This document shows positions 2,053 through 24,412 of a stretch of DNA of 64,000 bases, in pieces. Both the position numbers and the translations under genes were made by a program. The stretch is from the sequence record OQ990039, one strand, 5' to 3'. Positions within the stretch are counted from its first letter, which is position 1, and each line of letters starts with the position of its first letter. The notes beneath the pieces were generated by a model, which did no database searches, had not been told where the DNA came from, and worked only from the letters and a program-made list of their open reading frames with translations. The DNA comes from Escherichia phage SUT_E420.

Positions 2053-2754
2053 TCAAATTTTCATTTTTTCGATCATAGCTGCAACACAATAGCTTTCAAC
2101 TAAGGCATCAAATGCAGGATCATGCTTAACCGGATAGATCCCATAACGAATGGTGTCCATCTTCTCCATTTTAGCTTTTGCCCAGCTAATACCTTCAGCC
2201 TCTAGATCTTTGTAACTATAATCAGCTTGCATCCAGAGATTACGAAGAGATCGAACATTGCCCAAATTCCAGAATTTCCACGGAACTACCTCTTCATTGG
2301 TTCCAGCATGGAATGTGTTTGCAGAGTAGATAGTCATATCAAACTCTGGGCCATTACCATAATACAAAGCATTTTCGCCTAGAGCCAACTCCATAATATT
2401 TTGAGCCATAGAGAAGGCAGCATAGTTTGAGCCAAATTTATTAGTGCAATGATGTTTACCATTTTGGAAGGCAATCAGTTTTGGATTACGTTCCTTCATA
2501 GCTTCCATAATGTGAATAGCAGACGGGCTATTTTTAGCTTGATCCATCCAGAATGCTAGAGTAGATGCTGTAACTTTAGCACCAGAATTAAGCTGATCTT
2601 GTACATCCAAAGTAACAAATACTAGATCAGGGTCTTTATCAATTCCATGCATAGCCACAAAAGCGAAAGAAGGCATTGCGATATGAGTAGTACCACAATC
2701 TCCTGGAGTTCCCAGAGATTCAATATCTAGCATACCAAATGGTTTTACTTTCAT
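2053..2754 (-). CDS. Putative DEDD-type 3'-5' exonuclease (Rv2179c-like)
   Basis: 233 aa. N-terminal MLDIESLG (Asp/Glu exo motif I) and downstream His/Asp-containing segments. Assignment from motif resemblance only. Confidence 0.45.
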   Translation of the reverse strand: MKVKPFGMLDIESLGTPGDCGTTHIAMPSFAFVAMHGIDKDPDLVFVTLDVQDQLNSGAKVTASTLAFWMDQAKNSPSAIHIMEAMKERNPKLIAFQNGKHHCTNKFGSNYAAFSMAQNIMELALGENALYYGNGPEFDMTIYSANTFHAGTNEEVVPWKFWNLGNVRSLRNLWMQADYSYKDLEAEGISWAKAKMEKMDTIRYGIYPVKHDPAFDALVESYCVAAMIEKMKI

Positions 2755-2782
2755 AAGTTATCCTTTATTGTGTAGAAAACTA

Positions 2783-3019
2783 TTAAAGAGCTGTCTCTTT
2801 AATAGACTCCCACTTCTTGGGGTCTTTAAAACCAGGGAGCATATCCTCACTGACATCCCAGTTCTCTTCCATAGAGAAGTCGGGCCATTCATCCCAACTA
2901 CCTTCCAACTCTTCATAACAGGTATCCATTACCTCATGACTAGAAAGTCGTGTATAATCCCTAGCTGACTTATGGGTGGTAGCACGGTTAAAATCATTCT
3001 TTGCCACAAAATTACGCAT
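2783..3019 (-). CDS. Hypothetical acidic small protein
   Basis: 78-aa ORF with GGAGA SD; Trp/acidic-rich C-terminal half. Confidence 0.4.
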   Translation of the reverse strand: MRNFVAKNDFNRATTHKSARDYTRLSSHEVMDTCYEELEGSWDEWPDFSMEENWDVSEDMLPGFKDPKKWESIKETAL

Positions 3020-3036
3020 AGTTTCTCCAAATAAGA

Positions 3037-3050
3037 GGGGCTTTCGCCCC
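3037..3050. terminator. GC hairpin (GGGGC-TTTC-GCCCC), candidate intrinsic terminator
   Basis: Perfect 5-bp GC stem with 4-nt loop and A/T-rich flanks, between two minus-strand genes. Confidence 0.4.
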
Positions 3051-3060
3051 CTGATTTAAA

Positions 3061-3276
3061 TCACTTGCCCAGCAGTTTAAGGATATTTTCCATAATAGTT
3101 TGGGCAGATTTTTCACTCTTGTTGGTTTCAGCCAACTTTAAAGCGAGTTCTTCCTGCTGTTTCTGAATATCAGCTGCGATTTTTTGATCAGCCTCAATAC
3201 GAGCTTGAAGCTCATCAGTGATAGTGGTAAAGGAAGCAACGATTTCAGTAACAGAACGTGGTTTCTTAGAGAACAT
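3061..3276 (-). CDS. Hypothetical coiled-coil small protein
   Basis: 71-aa ORF, AAGGAT SD, host-optimal codons. Confidence 0.45.
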   Translation of the reverse strand: MFSKKPRSVTEIVASFTTITDELQARIEADQKIAADIQKQQEELALKLAETNKSEKSAQTIMENILKLLGK

Positions 3277-3315
3277 AAAAAATATCCTTGATTAGTTAGA
3301 GAATTAGTGGATTGT

Positions 3316-3331
3316 AGGGGCTTCTGCCCCT
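3316..3331. terminator. GC hairpin (AGGGGC-TTCT-GCCCCT), candidate terminator
   Basis: Palindromic GC stem with T-rich tract on the plus side. Confidence 0.4.
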
Positions 3332-3340
3332 ATTTATCTA

Positions 3341-3856
3341 TTACTTCGCTTTACGCTTGCGAGCTGGTTTAGCAGATTTACGAGCAGAATCACCAGTGAA
3401 CTTAATGCCTACACCGTAACACAGAGCGCGAACATTATCTTTACTATACTCTACGCCAAAGATATTTGGCTTAACAGAACCAAACTGTCCACGAGTATCG
3501 CGCAATACATCTGCTGTTGGTTTACGCTTCTGGTTAACTGCCTTCTCGTAGTCTTTCATAGACATACCATTACGAGAGAACAATTCAGCCCCAGCGTTGA
3601 AACTCAAAGATACTGGGACAGATTTGTGGCCGTAATTTTCTACATACATAACCATTTTGTAGGATTTACGGGTGGCATTTTTAGCTTTAGGCTTCTTACG
3701 AATCGGAGCCGGATTATTCAATGCTTGCGCAGCCTGAGCATCGGTAGGATGCTTACGCAGGTGACGTTCCAGACGAGCTTTGCGATTAGCCTCGGTCTGC
3801 GGGAAAGTTTTAACTGCCGGGGCTGCTTGAGTTTTTGCGTTTTTCTGCTTAGCCAT
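3341..3856 (-). CDS. Hypothetical basic protein (Lys/Arg-rich termini)
   Basis: 171-aa ORF, AAGGAAAAC SD, basic N- and C-terminal tails suggesting nucleic-acid binding. Confidence 0.5.
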   Translation of the reverse strand: MAKQKNAKTQAAPAVKTFPQTEANRKARLERHLRKHPTDAQAAQALNNPAPIRKKPKAKNATRKSYKMVMYVENYGHKSVPVSLSFNAGAELFSRNGMSMKDYEKAVNQKRKPTADVLRDTRGQFGSVKPNIFGVEYSKDNVRALCYGVGIKFTGDSARKSAKPARKRKAK

Positions 3857-3894
3857 TATTTGTTTTCCTTTTTGTTTATCAATTTATGAAGTAT

Positions 3895-3923
3895 ATTATA
3901 CGAGAATTTGAAGCGTTTAGCAA
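3895..3923 (-). promoter_or_regulatory. T5-type early promoter (minus strand)
   Basis: Reverse strand: -35 TTGCTA (3918-3923), 17-nt spacer, -10 TATAAT (3895-3900). Confidence 0.5.
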
Positions 3924-3931
3924 ATGAATTT

Positions 3932-4381
3932 TTAATTTATTAACTGTAAGCTTCTTTTAATTTCAGACCTTACTTGCATCAAAAGGACTCCTAAAGTATT
4001 ATCCCCGATGCCTCGGCAAACACCCCAATATGTATCTCCCCAGGTATTTCCTTCGATCAAAGTTGCATTTTCTGTTGCTAACAGTTTATCTCTTAAATCA
4101 GGAATTGCAAACTTTAATCGTAAAAGCTCTAGCATTACATCATCTTTTACTTTATCCCAGTCAGAGCGTAGGGTTAATTTACGTCCTCTACGTTTAGCAA
4201 CTCCTGCATTTAGGGAGCGGAGTACATGAGCTACATCATCTTTTTGGTCGGATTTCATAGCCTGAAAAGCATGTTCTACAGTATCAGCATGCCATATCTC
4301 ATTTAGATATTCGAAAGTAATTGGTGATAAATAAAAGTTAGATAAGAAACTATAAGTACCTTTAAATTCAGTAATCTTCAT
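3932..4381 (-). CDS. NADAR (YbiA-like) domain protein, putative ADP-ribose-processing hydrolase
   Basis: 149 aa. FLSNFY...HAFQAMK...EGNTWGDTYWGV matches NADAR/DUF1768 landmarks. Start overlaps the stop of the upstream ORF. Confidence 0.65.
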   Translation of the reverse strand: MKITEFKGTYSFLSNFYLSPITFEYLNEIWHADTVEHAFQAMKSDQKDDVAHVLRSLNAGVAKRRGRKLTLRSDWDKVKDDVMLELLRLKFAIPDLRDKLLATENATLIEGNTWGDTYWGVCRGIGDNTLGVLLMQVRSEIKRSLQLIN

Positions 4382-4662
4382 TTTTTACGCCCCGCATCTT
4401 TAGCCTCCTCGGCTGTATAGATATACTGATAAGCCCCTTTGGAGTAGGCTGGAGCAGTACACATTTTCTTACGCTCAATCTCTTCTTGAGCTTTTCTTTC
4501 GCGTTCCGCTAATTCTTCGTCCAAATAAACTAAACGTTGTTCTGGAGGAGGTGGAAGACGTGTTTCTGGCTCGCCAATATTAGCCTTTCTTATTTGACGA
4601 GGTGATTGTGCACGTTTTCTCAATGGTTTAAATCCTAATGAATTTGAGTTATAGATCCGCAT
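4378..4662 (-). CDS. Hypothetical protein
   Basis: 94-aa ORF translationally coupled to the NADAR gene; Pro-rich segment and charged helix. Confidence 0.4.
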   Translation of the reverse strand: MRIYNSNSLGFKPLRKRAQSPRQIRKANIGEPETRLPPPPEQRLVYLDEELAERERKAQEEIERKKMCTAPAYSKGAYQYIYTAEEAKDAGRKK

Positions 4663-6646: not shown

Positions 6647-7179
6647 TAATAAGTAACCAATTCCTGTACAAATCGCAGGCTGTTATCACTGTTTGCGCCA
6701 GTTGCGTAAACTAAACGAGTAGATTCATAGTTGTAATCTAGAATCGTATTATCCAGATATACATCTGCCTCTAGTTTTTGATTACTAAAGATTGTGGATA
6801 CAAAAGCACTTTCAATATGACCATATTGATACATTTCTAGAAGAAGGTTAGCACCACCTAGAACTACTGTCTGCTGATCTTTCAGAAATGTAGGTAAAGC
6901 ATCCCCAATCTTAGAAATTGGGGTGTAAATATCATGTGTAATATCATCTGGCAGTGGACGATCAGCACGAATAAATAGGTCAGAAGCTCCAATCATACGT
7001 TCTCTAACGGCGTATGGAAGAGCTAAATAAGTACCCGCACCAATGATGATGTTATCTGGATTCAACACGTCCAGTTGAGAATAGAAAGCATCTAGTTCTT
7101 CTTTGAAGGAACCCCATGGAAGTTTACCGCGGAGGCCGAACTCCCCATTCGGCCCAACTGCATACATTGCTGTAATCAT
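6646..7179 (-). CDS. frd: Dihydrofolate reductase
   Basis: 177 aa. GKLPW and IIGAGTY..LP motifs resemble phage DHFR; sits between thyA and nrdB as in T-even/T5-like phages. Confidence 0.75.
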
Positions 7180-8321
7180 AAGAAATCTCCAAATTCATTA
7201 CCCAGATCTTTCAGAGTATCAGTAGAGGTCTCAGTTACCTGACCTACACGGTAGGCTGCACCAATCTGGATTTCTTGTGGAGCAGGCTGTAGAGAAGTAG
7301 TATCCAACCAGTTCATAATCCACGGAATAGGGTTTTTGGTGATTACTGGTAAATGACTAGGCCATTCTACACCGATGTGCATAAATGCATTACGTCCCAC
7401 AAAATACAGATATTCTTCTAGAAGTTCTGCATTCAAGCCAATCAGACTACGACCTTTGAAAATGAAATGACCCCATTCAATTTCAGTTTTCAGAGTTTTC
7501 AGGAGCTGTGCTGGTGCTTTAGCCACTGCTTCATCTACCAGATCTTTGTCAAATTGCTGAAACATAATCTGGATGATTGCTTTGGACATCTGAGTGTGCA
7601 GAGCTTCATCTTTAGCGATTAATTGCAGATTTTTAGCAATACCTTGCAGAATATCGTTCTCTGCTAATGCAAAGGTACATGCAAAGGATGCGTAAAACTG
7701 CATTGCTTCCAGACCATAGATCGCAAAGTAAGCGTCTAATAGTTTAGCCTGAGTTTCACGTTTAACTTCAGGGAACTCAGTTTCTGGATATGTATTGTCG
7801 CCACGATGATCGCGTACTGCGATGAAATACTGACCTAACTGGTACAGTTCATCGAATAGTTCAACAGAATCAGCGATGCGCGCGAATGCTTCTTGGTTTT
7901 TGGTTACAGAATCAATAAATTCTGCTGGATCAGTCAGCACATTACGAATAATATTGCTATAAGCACGACTATGCAGGTCTTCAAAATAGCTCCACTGTTT
8001 GAGCATACCTTCCAATTCTGGACGACTTACAAGCGGCATAATAGCTGCTTCAGGGGCACGACTAATAAAGGAATCAGTTTGAGTTTGCCATGCTAAGTTC
8101 AGGAGTGTAATTTCCTGAATTTCTCGTGGGAGATTAGGCCATTGTTTCTTATCTGCTTCCAGACTGATTTCAGTTTCAGTCCAAAATTGAGAGCGCTGCA
8201 GAAGTGCCAGACGTTCTAGTTCTGGATGTGCTACACGTACATAATCTGCGATACCGAGAGAATCTCCCAGGAAAAGGTCGGCGTTAGTATGATCCCAATT
8301 CAGGTTTAGTAAAGTAGTCAT
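7176..8321 (-). CDS. nrdB: Ribonucleotide reductase class Ia beta subunit
   Basis: 381 aa, typical R2 length; adjacent to nrdA with a homing endonuclease gene in between. Confidence 0.9.
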   Translation of the reverse strand: MTTLLNLNWDHTNADLFLGDSLGIADYVRVAHPELERLALLQRSQFWTETEISLEADKKQWPNLPREIQEITLLNLAWQTQTDSFISRAPEAAIMPLVSRPELEGMLKQWSYFEDLHSRAYSNIIRNVLTDPAEFIDSVTKNQEAFARIADSVELFDELYQLGQYFIAVRDHRGDNTYPETEFPEVKRETQAKLLDAYFAIYGLEAMQFYASFACTFALAENDILQGIAKNLQLIAKDEALHTQMSKAIIQIMFQQFDKDLVDEAVAKAPAQLLKTLKTEIEWGHFIFKGRSLIGLNAELLEEYLYFVGRNAFMHIGVEWPSHLPVITKNPIPWIMNWLDTTSLQPAPQEIQIGAAYRVGQVTETSTDTLKDLGNEFGDFL

Positions 8322-8352
8322 TGATTTTCCTCTTTCTCACTATTTCAGGAAT

Positions 8353-8381
8353 ATTATAGCAAATCTGGTAGCGATTAGCAA
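8353..8381 (-). promoter_or_regulatory. T5-type early promoter (minus strand) upstream of nrdB
   Basis: Reverse strand: -35 TTGCTA (8376-8381), 17-nt spacer, -10 TATAAT (8353-8358). Confidence 0.5.
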
Positions 8382-8387
8382 GTAAAA

Positions 8388-8870
8388 TTATAAACTATCA
8401 AGCTCCAATAGTTTAGCATCGCGCCATTCTATAGCATCCTCTAATTCTTTGAATGTTTTAGTATGTTTTACACCTTTTCTAGCAATCTGGACTTGGTAAG
8501 ATCCGCTTGCTTTTTGGTGTATATTCTTAATACCTAACTTATTGTCTTTGTGCGCTCCGACATTCTTTCCATTGTTAAATCTATCAGATGCTAATAAATT
8601 AATTGCTCTATTATCATGACGTATTCTGTTGTCATGGTCTACTTCTTTTGGAATGTATCCATGAGTGATATAGAATGCTAGGATATGTGCATAGTATTTT
8701 TTACCCCTTACTTGCATTACTATATACCCTGAGCATTTTTCTAGAGAACCTGCTTCTTTGCCAGCAAACTTAGTATTAAAGGATTTATCTTCTCTAGGTT
8801 TGTGGGTAAAGATTCCAGTTTCTGGATTATAGTCAAATAACCCAGCTATTTCTTTATATTTTTCTTCCAT
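8388..8870 (-). CDS. HNH homing endonuclease (free-standing, between nrdA and nrdB)
   Basis: 160 aa. HGYIPKEVDHDNRIRHDNRAINL is a classic HNH motif; C-terminal AP2-like DNA-binding segment. Intergenic placement between functionally linked genes. Confidence 0.8.
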   Translation of the reverse strand: MEEKYKEIAGLFDYNPETGIFTHKPREDKSFNTKFAGKEAGSLEKCSGYIVMQVRGKKYYAHILAFYITHGYIPKEVDHDNRIRHDNRAINLLASDRFNNGKNVGAHKDNKLGIKNIHQKASGSYQVQIARKGVKHTKTFKELEDAIEWRDAKLLELDSL

Positions 8871-8902
8871 AATCTAAAATTACAGCTATGATAGGCCTAA
8901 TA

Positions 8903-8920
8903 AAGGGGCTTTCGCCCCTT
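8903..8920. terminator. GC hairpin (AAGGGGC-TTTC-GCCCCTT), bidirectional terminator candidate
   Basis: 7-bp stem with A-rich 5' and T-rich 3' flank; lies after nrdA on the minus strand. Confidence 0.5.
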
Positions 8921-8925
8921 ATTTA

Positions 8926-11259
8926 TTATAATTGACAACCACCGGATGCACATCCAGCAGCAGCTTCTTCACCTGCACCTCCACCATTTGCAGTATTGAA
9001 GTTTGCATAGTAGAAAGTTTTCCACCCATACTTAACAGCAGTCATGAAATCACGAACTACTACTGGGCCAGGAATGATTTCATTCTCAAACTTGGTGTAG
9101 TCATAGTACATATTCGTACTGATAGACTGACTGAAGAATTTCTGCATAGTTGCTACCCACTTGATCCACTCGATACGATCTACATCATAAGCCAGTTTAT
9201 AGCTCATTAACGTTTCCCAATCGGTTGCACCTGGAGCAATTGCAATTACTTTATTTACTGCACTACCCTTGATAGATACAATCTTACGAGGTGGTTCGAT
9301 AGAGTTAGTAACACCTAACAGAACAGAAGAACTTTCTCCCGGCATCTGAGCAGTCAGAACAGAGTTACGCATACCATATTTCAGAATATCTGCACGCAGA
9401 GACTCCCAATCCATTTCTAGACCTACGGATACCAGTTCATCAACAGTTTTCTTGTACGTGTCGATTACCAGAATTCCTTTAGATGGTTTAGTACGATCAA
9501 ACCACTCACATGCACCCTGTTCTTTAGCTAGGCGTACAGAGGCTTTATGCAGGAAGTAAGACAGTTTTTCAGCCTCACGGTGAATCCAGTTACGAGCTTC
9601 AATACCTTCATAAGCCAGACCTTCTGCTGCCATTGCACCTGCTGCGTTCATCAGGCCAATACCAACATTACGACGTTTCTTAGCCGTATATTCCATAGTT
9701 GGGAACGGATAATCCTGAATTTCAATAATTGTATCAACGAATTTCAGAAGGATGTAGCAAGTTTTTTCCCACTCAGCCAGAGATTCCATGCGTCCAAGTA
9801 CAACACCGCCTAAGTTACACAGAGATACTTCACCAATATCCTCCGGCTTCATTTGATCAAGTTGTTCTTTTGTTTTATACAGTTCCGTGATATGATGGAA
9901 CGGGCGTGTAGGCTGAGTAATTTCAACACAAAGGTTTGTCATACGGATCGGATCAAGGAAGTTACCGTGACGATTAGATTCCCCGATGTGATGAGCATAC
10001 ATACGTCCTGTTTCCATTCGGATACGTAGCCAAGTATCTAGGATTTCTTTTGCAGAGACTTTAGGAGCTGCTGGAACTGTTTTTCCTTCGTGGTCGATCT
10101 TTGTAAGAGATGCCACACGTTTCTCCGCTGCCACGTAGATTTCTTCAAATTTAGCCTCGTCATCACTATAAAACGCTTCATGAACTTCTGGAGCATAGAA
10201 GTATGACATTAGCGTAATATCTTCGTTTTTAAGATAACGTTTTAACAAAAGATTGTTAAAGCTCAGAGAATAGTCCATCTTATCGATTTTATTCTCATCT
10301 GTAGCACGTTGTTGCTTAACCTGCATCAATTGAATGATTTCAGGGTCGAAGTACGTATAAGACACTGTGGCAGAACCACCACGAGTTTGCTGAGTATTGG
10401 CCTTTACTGAGCGGTCAATGTGTCGATAATATGGCAGTTTTCCGGAATGCGGGAATGCCCCATTTCGCACCGGATCAGCAATTGATCGGCTTTCAAGATG
10501 ATACCCGATTCCCGCTCTGGCTGCGACCATTTTGAAGACGATGTGCTCGGCGGTGTCGATTGAATCCAACGTGTCAGTGGAATCCACGAGGCAGCAACTA
10601 GCAAATCCACGGTCACTAGAGCGCAGACCAACCAGTGGCGGCGTAGGAATGTTGATTTTGTGGAGTGACATTGCGTTGTAGAGGTCGATTGCATCTAGAA
10701 TTGTCCAGTTAGGTTGAGATAACATCGCCATTGCCATACCCATGTAGGCAAACTGCGGAGTTTCATAGATTTCACCAGTGGCTATGTTACGACGGGAATA
10801 CTTATCAAAGAACTGTTTCAGCCCACCACTAGTAAAAAGACGGTCACGATCATGGTCGATAACCTGATTCAGAGCTTCAAATTGCTCATCGGTAATCCAT
10901 GCACTCATGTCTTCCCATGCACCTACGCTAACCATATGGTCATGGAAGAAGCGCAGAGAAGGTGGTTCGAAGGAATCATAGAGGCGTTTACGCATTTGCG
11001 CAAGACGTAATTCCTTTGCTGGCACATCATATGCTGGATTATCTTTGATAAGACTTTCAGCAGCTTTAATTAATGCATCCATCAGAGTGTCGGAATCTAC
11101 AACCCCTTTAGGCAGAGTTTTTTGAGCAGCCATAGTAATGGCTGACCAACTTACATCAACTGTTTTGCAACCATACTCCGCCCAACCATTGAGTTTTTCA
11201 GGAGCAAAGTCTTCTACAGTACCGTCACGTTTAATTACTTTTTCAATGCGATGGCTCAT
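8926..11259 (-). CDS. nrdA: Ribonucleotide reductase class Ia alpha subunit
   Basis: Start moved to the ATG giving MSHRIEKVIKRDGTVEDF (ATP-cone) with AGGAAAG SD; the track ORF extends 35 codons further upstream. Cys-containing C-terminal tail. Confidence 0.9.
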   Translation of the reverse strand: MSHRIEKVIKRDGTVEDFAPEKLNGWAEYGCKTVDVSWSAITMAAQKTLPKGVVDSDTLMDALIKAAESLIKDNPAYDVPAKELRLAQMRKRLYDSFEPPSLRFFHDHMVSVGAWEDMSAWITDEQFEALNQVIDHDRDRLFTSGGLKQFFDKYSRRNIATGEIYETPQFAYMGMAMAMLSQPNWTILDAIDLYNAMSLHKINIPTPPLVGLRSSDRGFASCCLVDSTDTLDSIDTAEHIVFKMVAARAGIGYHLESRSIADPVRNGAFPHSGKLPYYRHIDRSVKANTQQTRGGSATVSYTYFDPEIIQLMQVKQQRATDENKIDKMDYSLSFNNLLLKRYLKNEDITLMSYFYAPEVHEAFYSDDEAKFEEIYVAAEKRVASLTKIDHEGKTVPAAPKVSAKEILDTWLRIRMETGRMYAHHIGESNRHGNFLDPIRMTNLCVEITQPTRPFHHITELYKTKEQLDQMKPEDIGEVSLCNLGGVVLGRMESLAEWEKTCYILLKFVDTIIEIQDYPFPTMEYTAKKRRNVGIGLMNAAGAMAAEGLAYEGIEARNWIHREAEKLSYFLHKASVRLAKEQGACEWFDRTKPSKGILVIDTYKKTVDELVSVGLEMDWESLRADILKYGMRNSVLTAQMPGESSSVLLGVTNSIEPPRKIVSIKGSAVNKVIAIAPGATDWETLMSYKLAYDVDRIEWIKWVATMQKFFSQSISTNMYYDYTKFENEIIPGPVVVRDFMTAVKYGWKTFYYANFNTANGGGAGEEAAAGCASGGCQL

Positions 11260-11401
11260 TTGGCTTTCCTTTTTATAGTTATCAGGATTTAAGGAATATT
11301 CTACTTTATTATCGGTCATTAGGCAAATAAAATTTTCTGATAGAAAAGGCCCGAGTATTTTCATACCCAGGCCCTGTATATTACCAGTCTAGCTTTTTAG
11401 C

Positions 11402-23167: not shown

Positions 23168-23440
23168 GTGAAAAAGATAAGTATAAGTACACTTAAACCT
23201 TTCCCGTACATCGGACAGCCTCTTATACTTATGTGGGAGGGGAAGATTAATGGAGAAAAGTATACTAAAACTAGAAGTGGGTATAAGCTGATTTCACTTC
23301 ATTACGAAAAAGAAGTATTAGTAGCTGAAATATACTCTCCGTTGTCAGATAGGCTAGTAAAAACTACATATTTGCATCTTTGCAAAAATTATACATGGCA
23401 CGGATCCACTAGACAACCCACATACTATGAGGCAGAATAA
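23168..23440 (+). CDS. Hypothetical small protein
   Basis: 90-aa ORF with GTG start after GAGGG SD, immediately upstream of ligA. Confidence 0.4.
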   Translation: MKKISISTLKPFPYIGQPLILMWEGKINGEKYTKTRSGYKLISLHYEKEVLVAEIYSPLSDRLVKTTYLHLCKNYTWHGSTRQPTYYEAE

Positions 23441-24412
23441 ATGACCAATGTAAAAGACTTTATTAAACGTTGCCAAGAAGCATATTATCAAGGTATGTCT
23501 TTAATCTCTGATGAAGAGTATGATTGCCTGGTAAAACGCTTTCCGTTAGAAGAAGAGATCGGACCTAAGGGCGATATTCCACATCTGTATCGTATGTATT
23601 CTTTACAGAAAGTTTATTATAATCGTGGAGATAAACCTCCGTTTAACCCGTTAGGTCAAGTAGAAACTGATAAGTTAGATGGTTGTGCAATTTCTCTGTT
23701 ATATATTAATGGCGAATTTGTTCAAGCACTAACTCGTGGTAATGGTATTCTAGGGAATGATGTCACAAGCAACGTAAGATTGCTGAATATCCCTAAAAAG
23801 ATTTCCCAAAAAGTACCTACTCAAATCACTGGTGAAGTTCTAATTACAAAAGAAGTAGAAAATAAACGTAACTTTGCCTCTGGTGCTATTAACCTCAAAG
23901 ATAGTGATGATTTTGTACAACGTATCGGAGAAGGTGGTTTAATCTTCGTTGCATATGGTATCCAGTGTTCTGCTGAATCTGTAGGTATTACAGAAGCATA
24001 TTTAAAAGATATGCTTTGGCTGGAGAATGAGAACTTCTTAACAGTTGTTAATGTGCGTTCCTTCTTTAAATGGATTCCGACGGATGGTAAAGTTGTTCGT
24101 ATTAATGACAACAACAAATTCTTCCGTGAAGGCTGGACTAATAAATTCCCTCGTGGAGCATTCGCTATTAAAGAGGATGAAGAAGGCGAGGTTACAACTC
24201 TTACTAAAGTTGAATGGCAGGTAGGGGCTTCTGGTAAAGTAACTCCAGTTGGTTATTTCGAACCGGTAATTATTGATGATGCTACAATTGTTAAAGCGAC
24301 TCTTAATAACGTTGATTATATTAACTCTCTTGATCTAGAGATCGGTTGCCAGATTCGAGTGATTCGTGCTGGTGGTGTAATCCCGTGCATAGTAGAGCGA
24401 GTATACGAGTAA
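23441..24412 (+). CDS. ligA: NAD-dependent DNA ligase, N-terminal (adenylation/OB) fragment
   Basis: 323 aa; adenylation motif TDKLDGCA (KxDG) and OB-fold region; ORF ends where a full LigA would continue. Confidence 0.85.
   Translation: MTNVKDFIKRCQEAYYQGMSLISDEEYDCLVKRFPLEEEIGPKGDIPHLYRMYSLQKVYYNRGDKPPFNPLGQVETDKLDGCAISLLYINGEFVQALTRGNGILGNDVTSNVRLLNIPKKISQKVPTQITGEVLITKEVENKRNFASGAINLKDSDDFVQRIGEGGLIFVAYGIQCSAESVGITEAYLKDMLWLENENFLTVVNVRSFFKWIPTDGKVVRINDNNKFFREGWTNKFPRGAFAIKEDEEGEVTTLTKVEWQVGASGKVTPVGYFEPVIIDDATIVKATLNNVDYINSLDLEIGCQIRVIRAGGVIPCIVERVYE

Follow-up and report, generated by a model that had tools for sequence, protein, structure and literature searches.

The open reading frame (ORF) between the ribonucleotide reductase (RNR) genes nrdA and nrdB in the window, i.e., the whole 64-kb stretch of DNA that was analyzed, very probably encodes a free-standing homing endonuclease with an HNH nuclease like that of I-HmuI and a probable AP2-like C-terminus, carried on a cassette of ~530 bp in the Tequintavirus nrd spacer; we put the probability of this reading at roughly 85%. 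The window region was 100% identical at the DNA level to the Escherichia phages SUT_E1520 and SUT_E520 (Tequintavirus, Demerecviridae). The nrdA-nrdB junction is a known hot spot, and the cassette is an ordinary case of its kind, with orthologues that have already been annotated. Niu et al. (2012; PMC3326045) had already reported that T5-like phages have an HNH gene in the nrdA-nrdB interval, that it diverges from its T5 counterpart and that mobE offers a parallel, and the BF23 paper (PMC10644984) identifies homing endonucleases as the principal source of the differences between T5-like genomes. Three points appear mildly new, as judged from the genomes compared here: a third HNH lineage with a separate insertion point, an apparent mutual exclusivity of the lineages, and empty alleles with an nrdA tail of the cassette type. 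The features on which these statements rest are collected in Table 1.

Table 1. Features of the HNH cassette, its surroundings and the compared loci (window coordinates unless an extracted locus is named).
Feature	Position	Strand	Details
HNH endonuclease ORF, EPS7-type lineage, free-standing	8388-8870	minus	160 aa, ATG start
HNH (His-Me finger) catalytic core, aa 59-103	8562-8696	minus	D78, H79, N91, N100, N103
Putative AP2-like DNA-binding C-terminus, aa ~111-154	8409-8540	minus	weak profile matches
Inserted cassette	about 8390-8922		~530 bp; HNH ORF, 32-nt leader, own terminator
Cassette-borne intrinsic terminator hairpin, directly after nrdA stop	8903-8920		GGGGC-TTTC-GCCCC
nrdB promoter, outside the element	8381->8353	minus	TTGCTA-17-TATAAT, upstream TG (extended -10), 10/12 matches
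nrdB, RNR small subunit, downstream neighbor	7176-8321	minus	Ribonuc_red_sm 3.8e-36
nrdA, RNR large subunit, upstream neighbor	8926-11364	minus	Ribonuc_red_lgC 2.2e-119
nrdA variant tail (...EEAAAGCASGGCQL), last ~25 codons	8926-9000	minus	travels with the cassette in the window genome
Variant nrdA tail, Escherichia phage BB1	1097-1295 of extracted locus		
Variant nrdA tail, GRNsp8	1100-1295 of extracted locus		
T5 hegH-type gene	1922-2446 of extracted T5 locus		
Spc35-type HNH gene	1919-2416 of extracted Spc35 locus		

The ORF was intergenic, bounded by the nrdA stop on one side and the nrdB promoter on the other, and both nrdA and nrdB were intact. An in-frame stop lay two codons 5' of its ATG. 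Comparison with the EPS7 orthologue yielded 36 synonymous and 4 non-synonymous differences (omega 0.02), which shows the ORF to be a real gene and not a chance reading frame. Pairwise dN/dS (Nei-Gojobori) ranged from 0.02 to 0.19 over all pairs, and these ratios indicated strong purifying selection on the protein. The GC content was 33.7% for the HNH gene and 34.3% for the cassette vs. 41.7% for nrdB and 42.8% for nrdA. Neither tblastn nor the family HMM run against all six-frame ORFs returned an HNH paralogue in the 64-kb window. Purifying selection, low GC content and the discordant identities described below support the view that the cassette is an active mobile element.

The protein matched Pfam HNH_3 (PF13392) over aa 59-95 with 34.5 bits against a cutoff of 24.8 (E=1.6e-8) and PHROG_99, ‘HNH endonuclease’, with E=1.1e-49. 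Together with the Ribonuc_red matches to both neighbors, these hits bear out a preliminary description of this DNA, which had placed an HNH gene between nrdB and nrdA. When a family profile was compared with all PDB sequences, the best match was I-HmuI (1U3E, E=6.5e-4); a single-sequence PDB search with the HNH protein gave nothing meaningful. Residues D78-H79, N91, N100 and N103 aligned with D74-H75, N87, N96 and N99 of I-HmuI, with an N-to-N spacing of 9 residues in both proteins, and the motif is therefore an H-N-N variant of HNH. The same description had quoted HDNRIRHDNRAINL (aa 79-92, nt 8595-8636) as a canonical HNH motif; an HNH motif was indeed present, but as the H-N-N variant, and the metal-binding Asn N100, the last catalytic residue, fell outside the quoted string. 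In the family alignment, D78, H79, N91 and N103 were invariant and N100 was at least 90% conserved, so that the gene does not lack the catalytic residues whose absence had been named as a reason to doubt it. A word-indexed protein search returned 7 homologues, too few for a deep alignment, and an AlphaFold2 model from the shallow 8-sequence alignment had a mean pLDDT of 63.6, with residues 77-124 (the catalytic core) below 50.

Behind I-HmuI, the next PDB matches of the family profile were plant AP2/ERF domains (WRI1, 7WQ5, E=0.01; TEM1, 7ET4, E=0.46), both over aa ~111-154. A combined HMM check for HNH_3 and AP2 had been proposed beforehand, and its two halves came out differently: HNH_3 was above its cutoff, but Pfam AP2 was not detected in the window protein even at E<=10. 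One distant homologue matched Pfam AP2 with E=2.4e-5 and 25 bits, under the gathering cutoff of 33.3. An HNH-AP2 architecture of the window protein is likely on these profile matches. HNH-AP2 homing endonucleases, with an N-terminal HNH and a C-terminal AP2 domain, are known (Magnani et al. 2004; ‘IPA-HNH’ of ICP1, PMC10448857), and the window protein differs from them in that its AP2 part is weakly supported. Whereas IPA-HNH is reported to have diverged too far to match HNH_3 (PMC10448857), the window protein matched that profile directly. Genes for HNH-AP2 homing endonucleases often adjoin ribonucleotide reductase genes (PMC10448857). The likeness to I-HmuI of Bacillus phage SPO1, in contrast, covers the D-H...N...N residues and their spacing, is confined to the nuclease core and is distant; I-HmuI is intron-encoded and has a DNA-binding half that is not AP2-like, whereas the window gene is free-standing.

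The limits of the cassette were taken from alignments with the empty alleles AZ23 and BB1, plus T5, Spc35 and atrejo. On the nrdB side, sequence common with empty alleles extended through 8389, so the left junction (8389/8390) lies within the TAA stop codon of the ORF (8388-8390). The nrdB promoter has its -35 hexamer 7 nt away. The right junction was located at ~8919-8925, where common sequence restarts just short of the nrdA stop codon. The cassette took the place of ~35-40 bp of native spacer, the native terminator included. As far as the alignments reveal, it stands in for this native sequence and is not a simple deletion partner. The hairpin of the cassette has a 7-bp stem (5 GC) with a GAAA/TTTC loop and was placed on the plus strand by the scan; the palindromic stem, followed by UUUAUU, folds also on the minus strand, which is that of the gene. 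At the same position, the empty, T5-type and Spc35-type alleles have a different hairpin (GGAGACCCGAAGATCTCC), the native terminator.

The preliminary description had set the gene between a terminator (8903-8920) and a promoter (8353-8381). The terminator was recovered on one side of the gene as stated. The promoter was also present on the other side, but it belongs to nrdB: it was identical in empty alleles and agreed with a T5 sequence (AY587007) that is annotated as early promoter T5P28. Its location downstream of the HNH gene, its role in driving nrdB and its presence in empty alleles place it outside the element. The order in the direction of transcription was nrdA, terminator, 32-nt leader, HNH gene, nrdB promoter and nrdB, and the HNH gene, standing after the terminator and before the nrdB promoter, thus has no promoter of its own. 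The scan called no promoter upstream of the HNH start, and the ORF had no clear Shine-Dalgarno sequence. With a terminator upstream and neither an own promoter nor a clear Shine-Dalgarno sequence, low-level read-through is the probable source of expression, and the HNH gene is probably expressed only in this manner, from nrdA and at a low level. Expression of nrdB would be untouched, since its promoter was left intact. A weak hairpin over the HNH start codon was considered and set aside as not significant (z = -1.7).

The lack of a promoter and of a clear Shine-Dalgarno sequence, together with the position behind a terminator, would also suit a stranded former homing endonuclease, now inactive and persisting by linkage to the essential nrd genes. 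Other alleles at the site are decaying (atrejo, the H8 draft and SB6), and a defunct endonuclease linked to nrd has a precedent in I-TevIII of T4 (PMC2790892). We nevertheless regard an inactive remnant as highly improbable, as the ORF is full length, all catalytic-equivalent residues are conserved, dN/dS is low in all pairs, and the cassette occurs in two genera with a history discordant with its flanks. The HNH cassette of the window is intact and probably active, judging from these features.

The junction comparison across T5-like genomes that had been suggested as a check was made with a 1.5-kb junction-spanning query, which matched 445 phage records. The window-type HNH gene was present in 47 of the 445 and was therefore not universal. 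Empty-site alleles were common, making up roughly half or more of the records and most of those that lack the gene; in about half of an evenly spaced sample of the ranked records, the match spanned 1000 bp rather than 1501 bp, i.e., the site was empty. The gap between nrdB and nrdA in the empty alleles was about 106 bp, and their flanks were 97% identical to the window. This presence/absence polymorphism, the catalytic residues and the discordant history support the earlier reading of the gene as a selfish homing endonuclease.

The strength of the purifying selection could be taken to favor another explanation, namely a domesticated or dual-use nuclease that benefits the phage and is not mainly self-copying, for instance by shutting out rival genomes of the T5 type or by serving as a DNA-binding regulator close to nrd. 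Over a synonymous distance of ~0.5, the selection was stronger than expected of a selfish gene in decay. A probable AP2-like DNA-binding domain would fit such a nuclease, and phage homing endonucleases can give an advantage to their host phage (PMC10448857; PMC13096335). Set against this, ~90% of close relatives grow without the window gene, its place is filled by other HNH lineages or by nothing, and it has no promoter of its own. Competitor exclusion by cutting is, moreover, mechanistically the same as homing, so that a benefit to the phage would be an addition to the homing endonuclease reading more than an alternative to it. We consider dual use as the main role of the gene unlikely.

The distribution bears more heavily still on a housekeeping role. 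I-HmuI-like HNH enzymes are nickases. The enzyme might accordingly be imagined to make the single-strand interruptions of T5-type virion DNA; nickases of the I-HmuI kind are known, the nick made by MobE is strand-specific (PMC2790892), and site-specific nicks of T5 DNA are annotated in AY543070. The nicks are annotated in T5, however, which has a different HNH lineage at the site and is without the window gene. As only ~10% of the junction records encode the window gene, a nicking process shared by T5-like phages, should one exist, could not depend on it, and the distribution effectively refutes this explanation as far as the compared records can tell.

Two other HNH lineages occupied the same nrdA-nrdB spacer: the T5 hegH type (‘P-TflVIII’, 174 aa) in 75 records and the Spc35/AKFV33 type (165 aa) in 29. 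The window HNH shared 36% amino-acid identity with the hegH type and 44% with the Spc35 type, and these two shared 42% with each other. Like the window gene, both belong to the HNH_3 family, have a similar C-terminus, sit in the same ~100-bp spacer and are polymorphic (PMC3326045). They differ from it in their insertion point, which is across the nrdB promoter, and in keeping the native terminator. The T5-type and Spc35-type genes were located between this promoter and the start of nrdB (equivalent to 8322-8352 in the window), where they abut or overlap nrdB, and are therefore co-transcribed with nrdB. Since the lineages lie on either side of the nrdB promoter, the spacer has two insertion points and three lineages.

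Among the 151 occupied records, none contained two HNH lineages, vs. ~11 double occupancies expected under independence (47 x 104 / 445, a figure that ignores shared ancestry and duplicate records). In the window-type records, there was no room for a second endonuclease gene, with the exception of SB6. It is possible, and we offer it tentatively, that the spacer is a contested landing pad on which the lineages displace one another, with empty alleles of the BB1 type being resistant survivors. A possible target of the EPS7-type cassette is the nrdA tail or native terminator that T5- and Spc35-type alleles have kept; with a target retained by rival alleles, each homing event would remove the endonuclease gene of the rival. 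With three competing HNH lineages in a single spacer, beside genes that MobE has colonized independently in T4-like phages, the site would be a tractable system for the study of homing-endonuclease competition.

Several alleles at the site were incomplete. Salmonella phage SB6 carried a second, partial copy of the window-type HNH gene in tandem, comprising the 5' two-thirds (SB6_105, 108 aa; 2443-2769 of the extracted locus), which ended out of frame upstream of the intact copy and lengthened the spacer by ~300 bp. A truncated T5-type gene was found in atrejo. In the working draft of H8 (locus 2059-2574), an HNH gene of the S124 subtype was cut off after ‘...KGVKYT’, without most of the AP2-like C-terminus, which may represent decay or an error of the draft sequence. 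The decayed alleles in atrejo, SB6 and the H8 draft would fit the homing-endonuclease life cycle. Salmonella phage KKP 3953 (locus 1923-2330) had a spacer insert of ~335 bp, without an ORF, between two copies of the nrdB promoter; the quality of this sequence is uncertain because its nrdB is split into two CDS and its nrdA tail is frameshifted.

Identities of each phage to the window were determined segment by segment from pairwise alignments, as a multi-sequence alignment inflates divergence at 8150-8389. The cassette of K44 was 85% identical to that of the window against 95-98% in the flanks, and that of H8 was 76% identical against 94-96%. The relation was reversed in phiR2-01, with 92% identity in the cassette and 75-89% in the flanks, and in SP01, with 99.4% in the cassette and only 80% at the nrdB 5' end. 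The same cassette subtypes were found in both Tequintavirus and Epseptimavirus genomes. These identities indicated that the history of the cassette differs from that of the flanking genes, i.e., that it has spread horizontally. Between the window and EPS7, the HNH gene diverged by 8%, similar to the flanks, and part of the distribution could therefore be old vertical inheritance with replacements. The junction had been marked beforehand as a likely site of mosaicism among T5-like phages, and both the disagreement between cassette and flank identities and the two other HNH lineages in the spacer agree with this. As a recombination hot spot, the site is useful for reading mosaicism among Tequintavirus and Epseptimavirus genomes.

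Further patches of mosaicism were observed nearby. SP01 was 98-100% identical to the window over the HNH gene and nrdA, with identity falling to 80% in the ~170 bp at the start of nrdB (8150-8321), and the nrdB 5' end in SP01 is, by this comparison, a second mosaic patch adjoining the HNH site. About 1.5 kb downstream, the segment 6400-6899 (the 3' part of the thymidylate synthase gene and the frd junction) showed 52-71% identity to SP01, FFH1, K44, H8 and EPS7, and 93% to AZ23, which points to another allele-replacement block.

The last codons of nrdA were anomalous. AZ23, otherwise the closest empty allele, diverged from the window by ~22-27% in 8926-9000, against a background of 1-2% over 4 kb, and the window nrdA tail had an extra Ala codon relative to AZ23, whose tail ends in ...EEAAGCAFGGCTI. 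In this interval the window matched the EPS7-type alleles. The divergence of the tail looks like co-conversion or protective polymorphism and makes it a candidate target region. A 75-bp tail search followed by alignment recovered the window-type tail (+Ala, GCATCCAGCAGCAGC) in two phages without the window HNH, namely BB1, which is empty at the site, and GRNsp8, which has a T5-type gene. The tail was accordingly rejected as a diagnostic part of the cassette, and as it is not exclusive to the cassette, we can only infer the target site and the co-conversion. The alleles of BB1 and GRNsp8 may be resistant or ex-occupied.

On the homing endonuclease reading, the enzyme would act during co-infection, nicking or cutting the genome of a relative without the cassette at a site that likely lies in or adjoins the nrdA 3' end or the spacer. 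Recombinational repair from the cassette-bearing genome would then copy in the cassette along with adjacent nrdA sequence, and the carrier would be protected by polymorphisms in its own allele. For the window HNH, we infer cleavage itself, the position of the target, the choice between a nick and a double-strand break and the route of expression. In the literature, we found no cleavage or biased-inheritance test of the EPS7-type lineage; a published Tequintavirus genome comparison and the Retron-Eco7 paper contained nothing on the nrdA-nrdB locus.

The closest parallel in position is mobE of T4, which lies between nrdA and nrdB, is promoterless and dependent on nrdA transcription, is associated with a terminator and preserves the nrdB promoter (PMC2790892). 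MobE nicks the neighboring conserved nrd gene, and its carriers have protective polymorphisms (PMC2790892). The MobE nick maps to nrdB, whereas the anomalous tract of the window is at the nrdA 3' end. Homology between the window HNH and MobE was rejected (BLASTP E=0.87; hhalign probability 0.2%), and the two fall into different families, MobE matching Pfam HNH (PF01844) and the window protein matching HNH_3 (PF13392). On these comparisons, MobE and the window gene represent a convergent colonization of the same niche.

Within T5-like phages, orthologues at the same site with 97-100% amino-acid identity were found in EPS7 (AGC_0108), vB_EcoS_FFH_1 (ORF95), SP01 and phiR2-01 (g086). The copies in FFH_1, SP01, vB_Sen-E22, NBEco001, EPS7 and phiR2-01 are annotated as H-N-H or homing endonucleases, and the ORF in SUT_E1520 is annotated as a ‘hypothetical protein’. 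The label of EPS7 AGC_0108 is more specific, ‘H-N-H endonuclease F-TflVI’. Identity of the window gene with T5 F-TflVI (hegF) was rejected, as the two share 41.6% identity and stand at different loci; hegF is located at T5 23245-23742, between T5.045 and T5.047, outside the nrd spacer. Compared with the T5 heg family more widely, the window HNH showed 35.7% identity to hegH and 44% to hegE over the N-terminal half. By these identities, the window gene is a member of the paralogous ‘heg’ family of T5-like phages and an orthologue of no heg gene compared. Because it is orthologous to none of hegF, hegH and hegE, ‘F-TflVI’ in EPS7 is a transferred name. The analysis is thus of value for annotation, both for the ‘hypothetical protein’ label in SUT_E1520 and for the mis-transferred ‘F-TflVI’ in EPS7.

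Two minor observations concern nrdA. In Yersinia phage phiR2-01, nrdA is represented by two CDS (g087 and g088) that are ~48 bp apart (locus 2528-4502), and this split may be genuine or stem from a frameshift or an error of sequencing. The nrdA ORF of the window, as annotated in SUT_E1520, encodes 812 aa and extends 36 codons further 5' (11257-11364) than the start of the 776-aa product in AZ23; the true nrdA start is probably the internal ATG.
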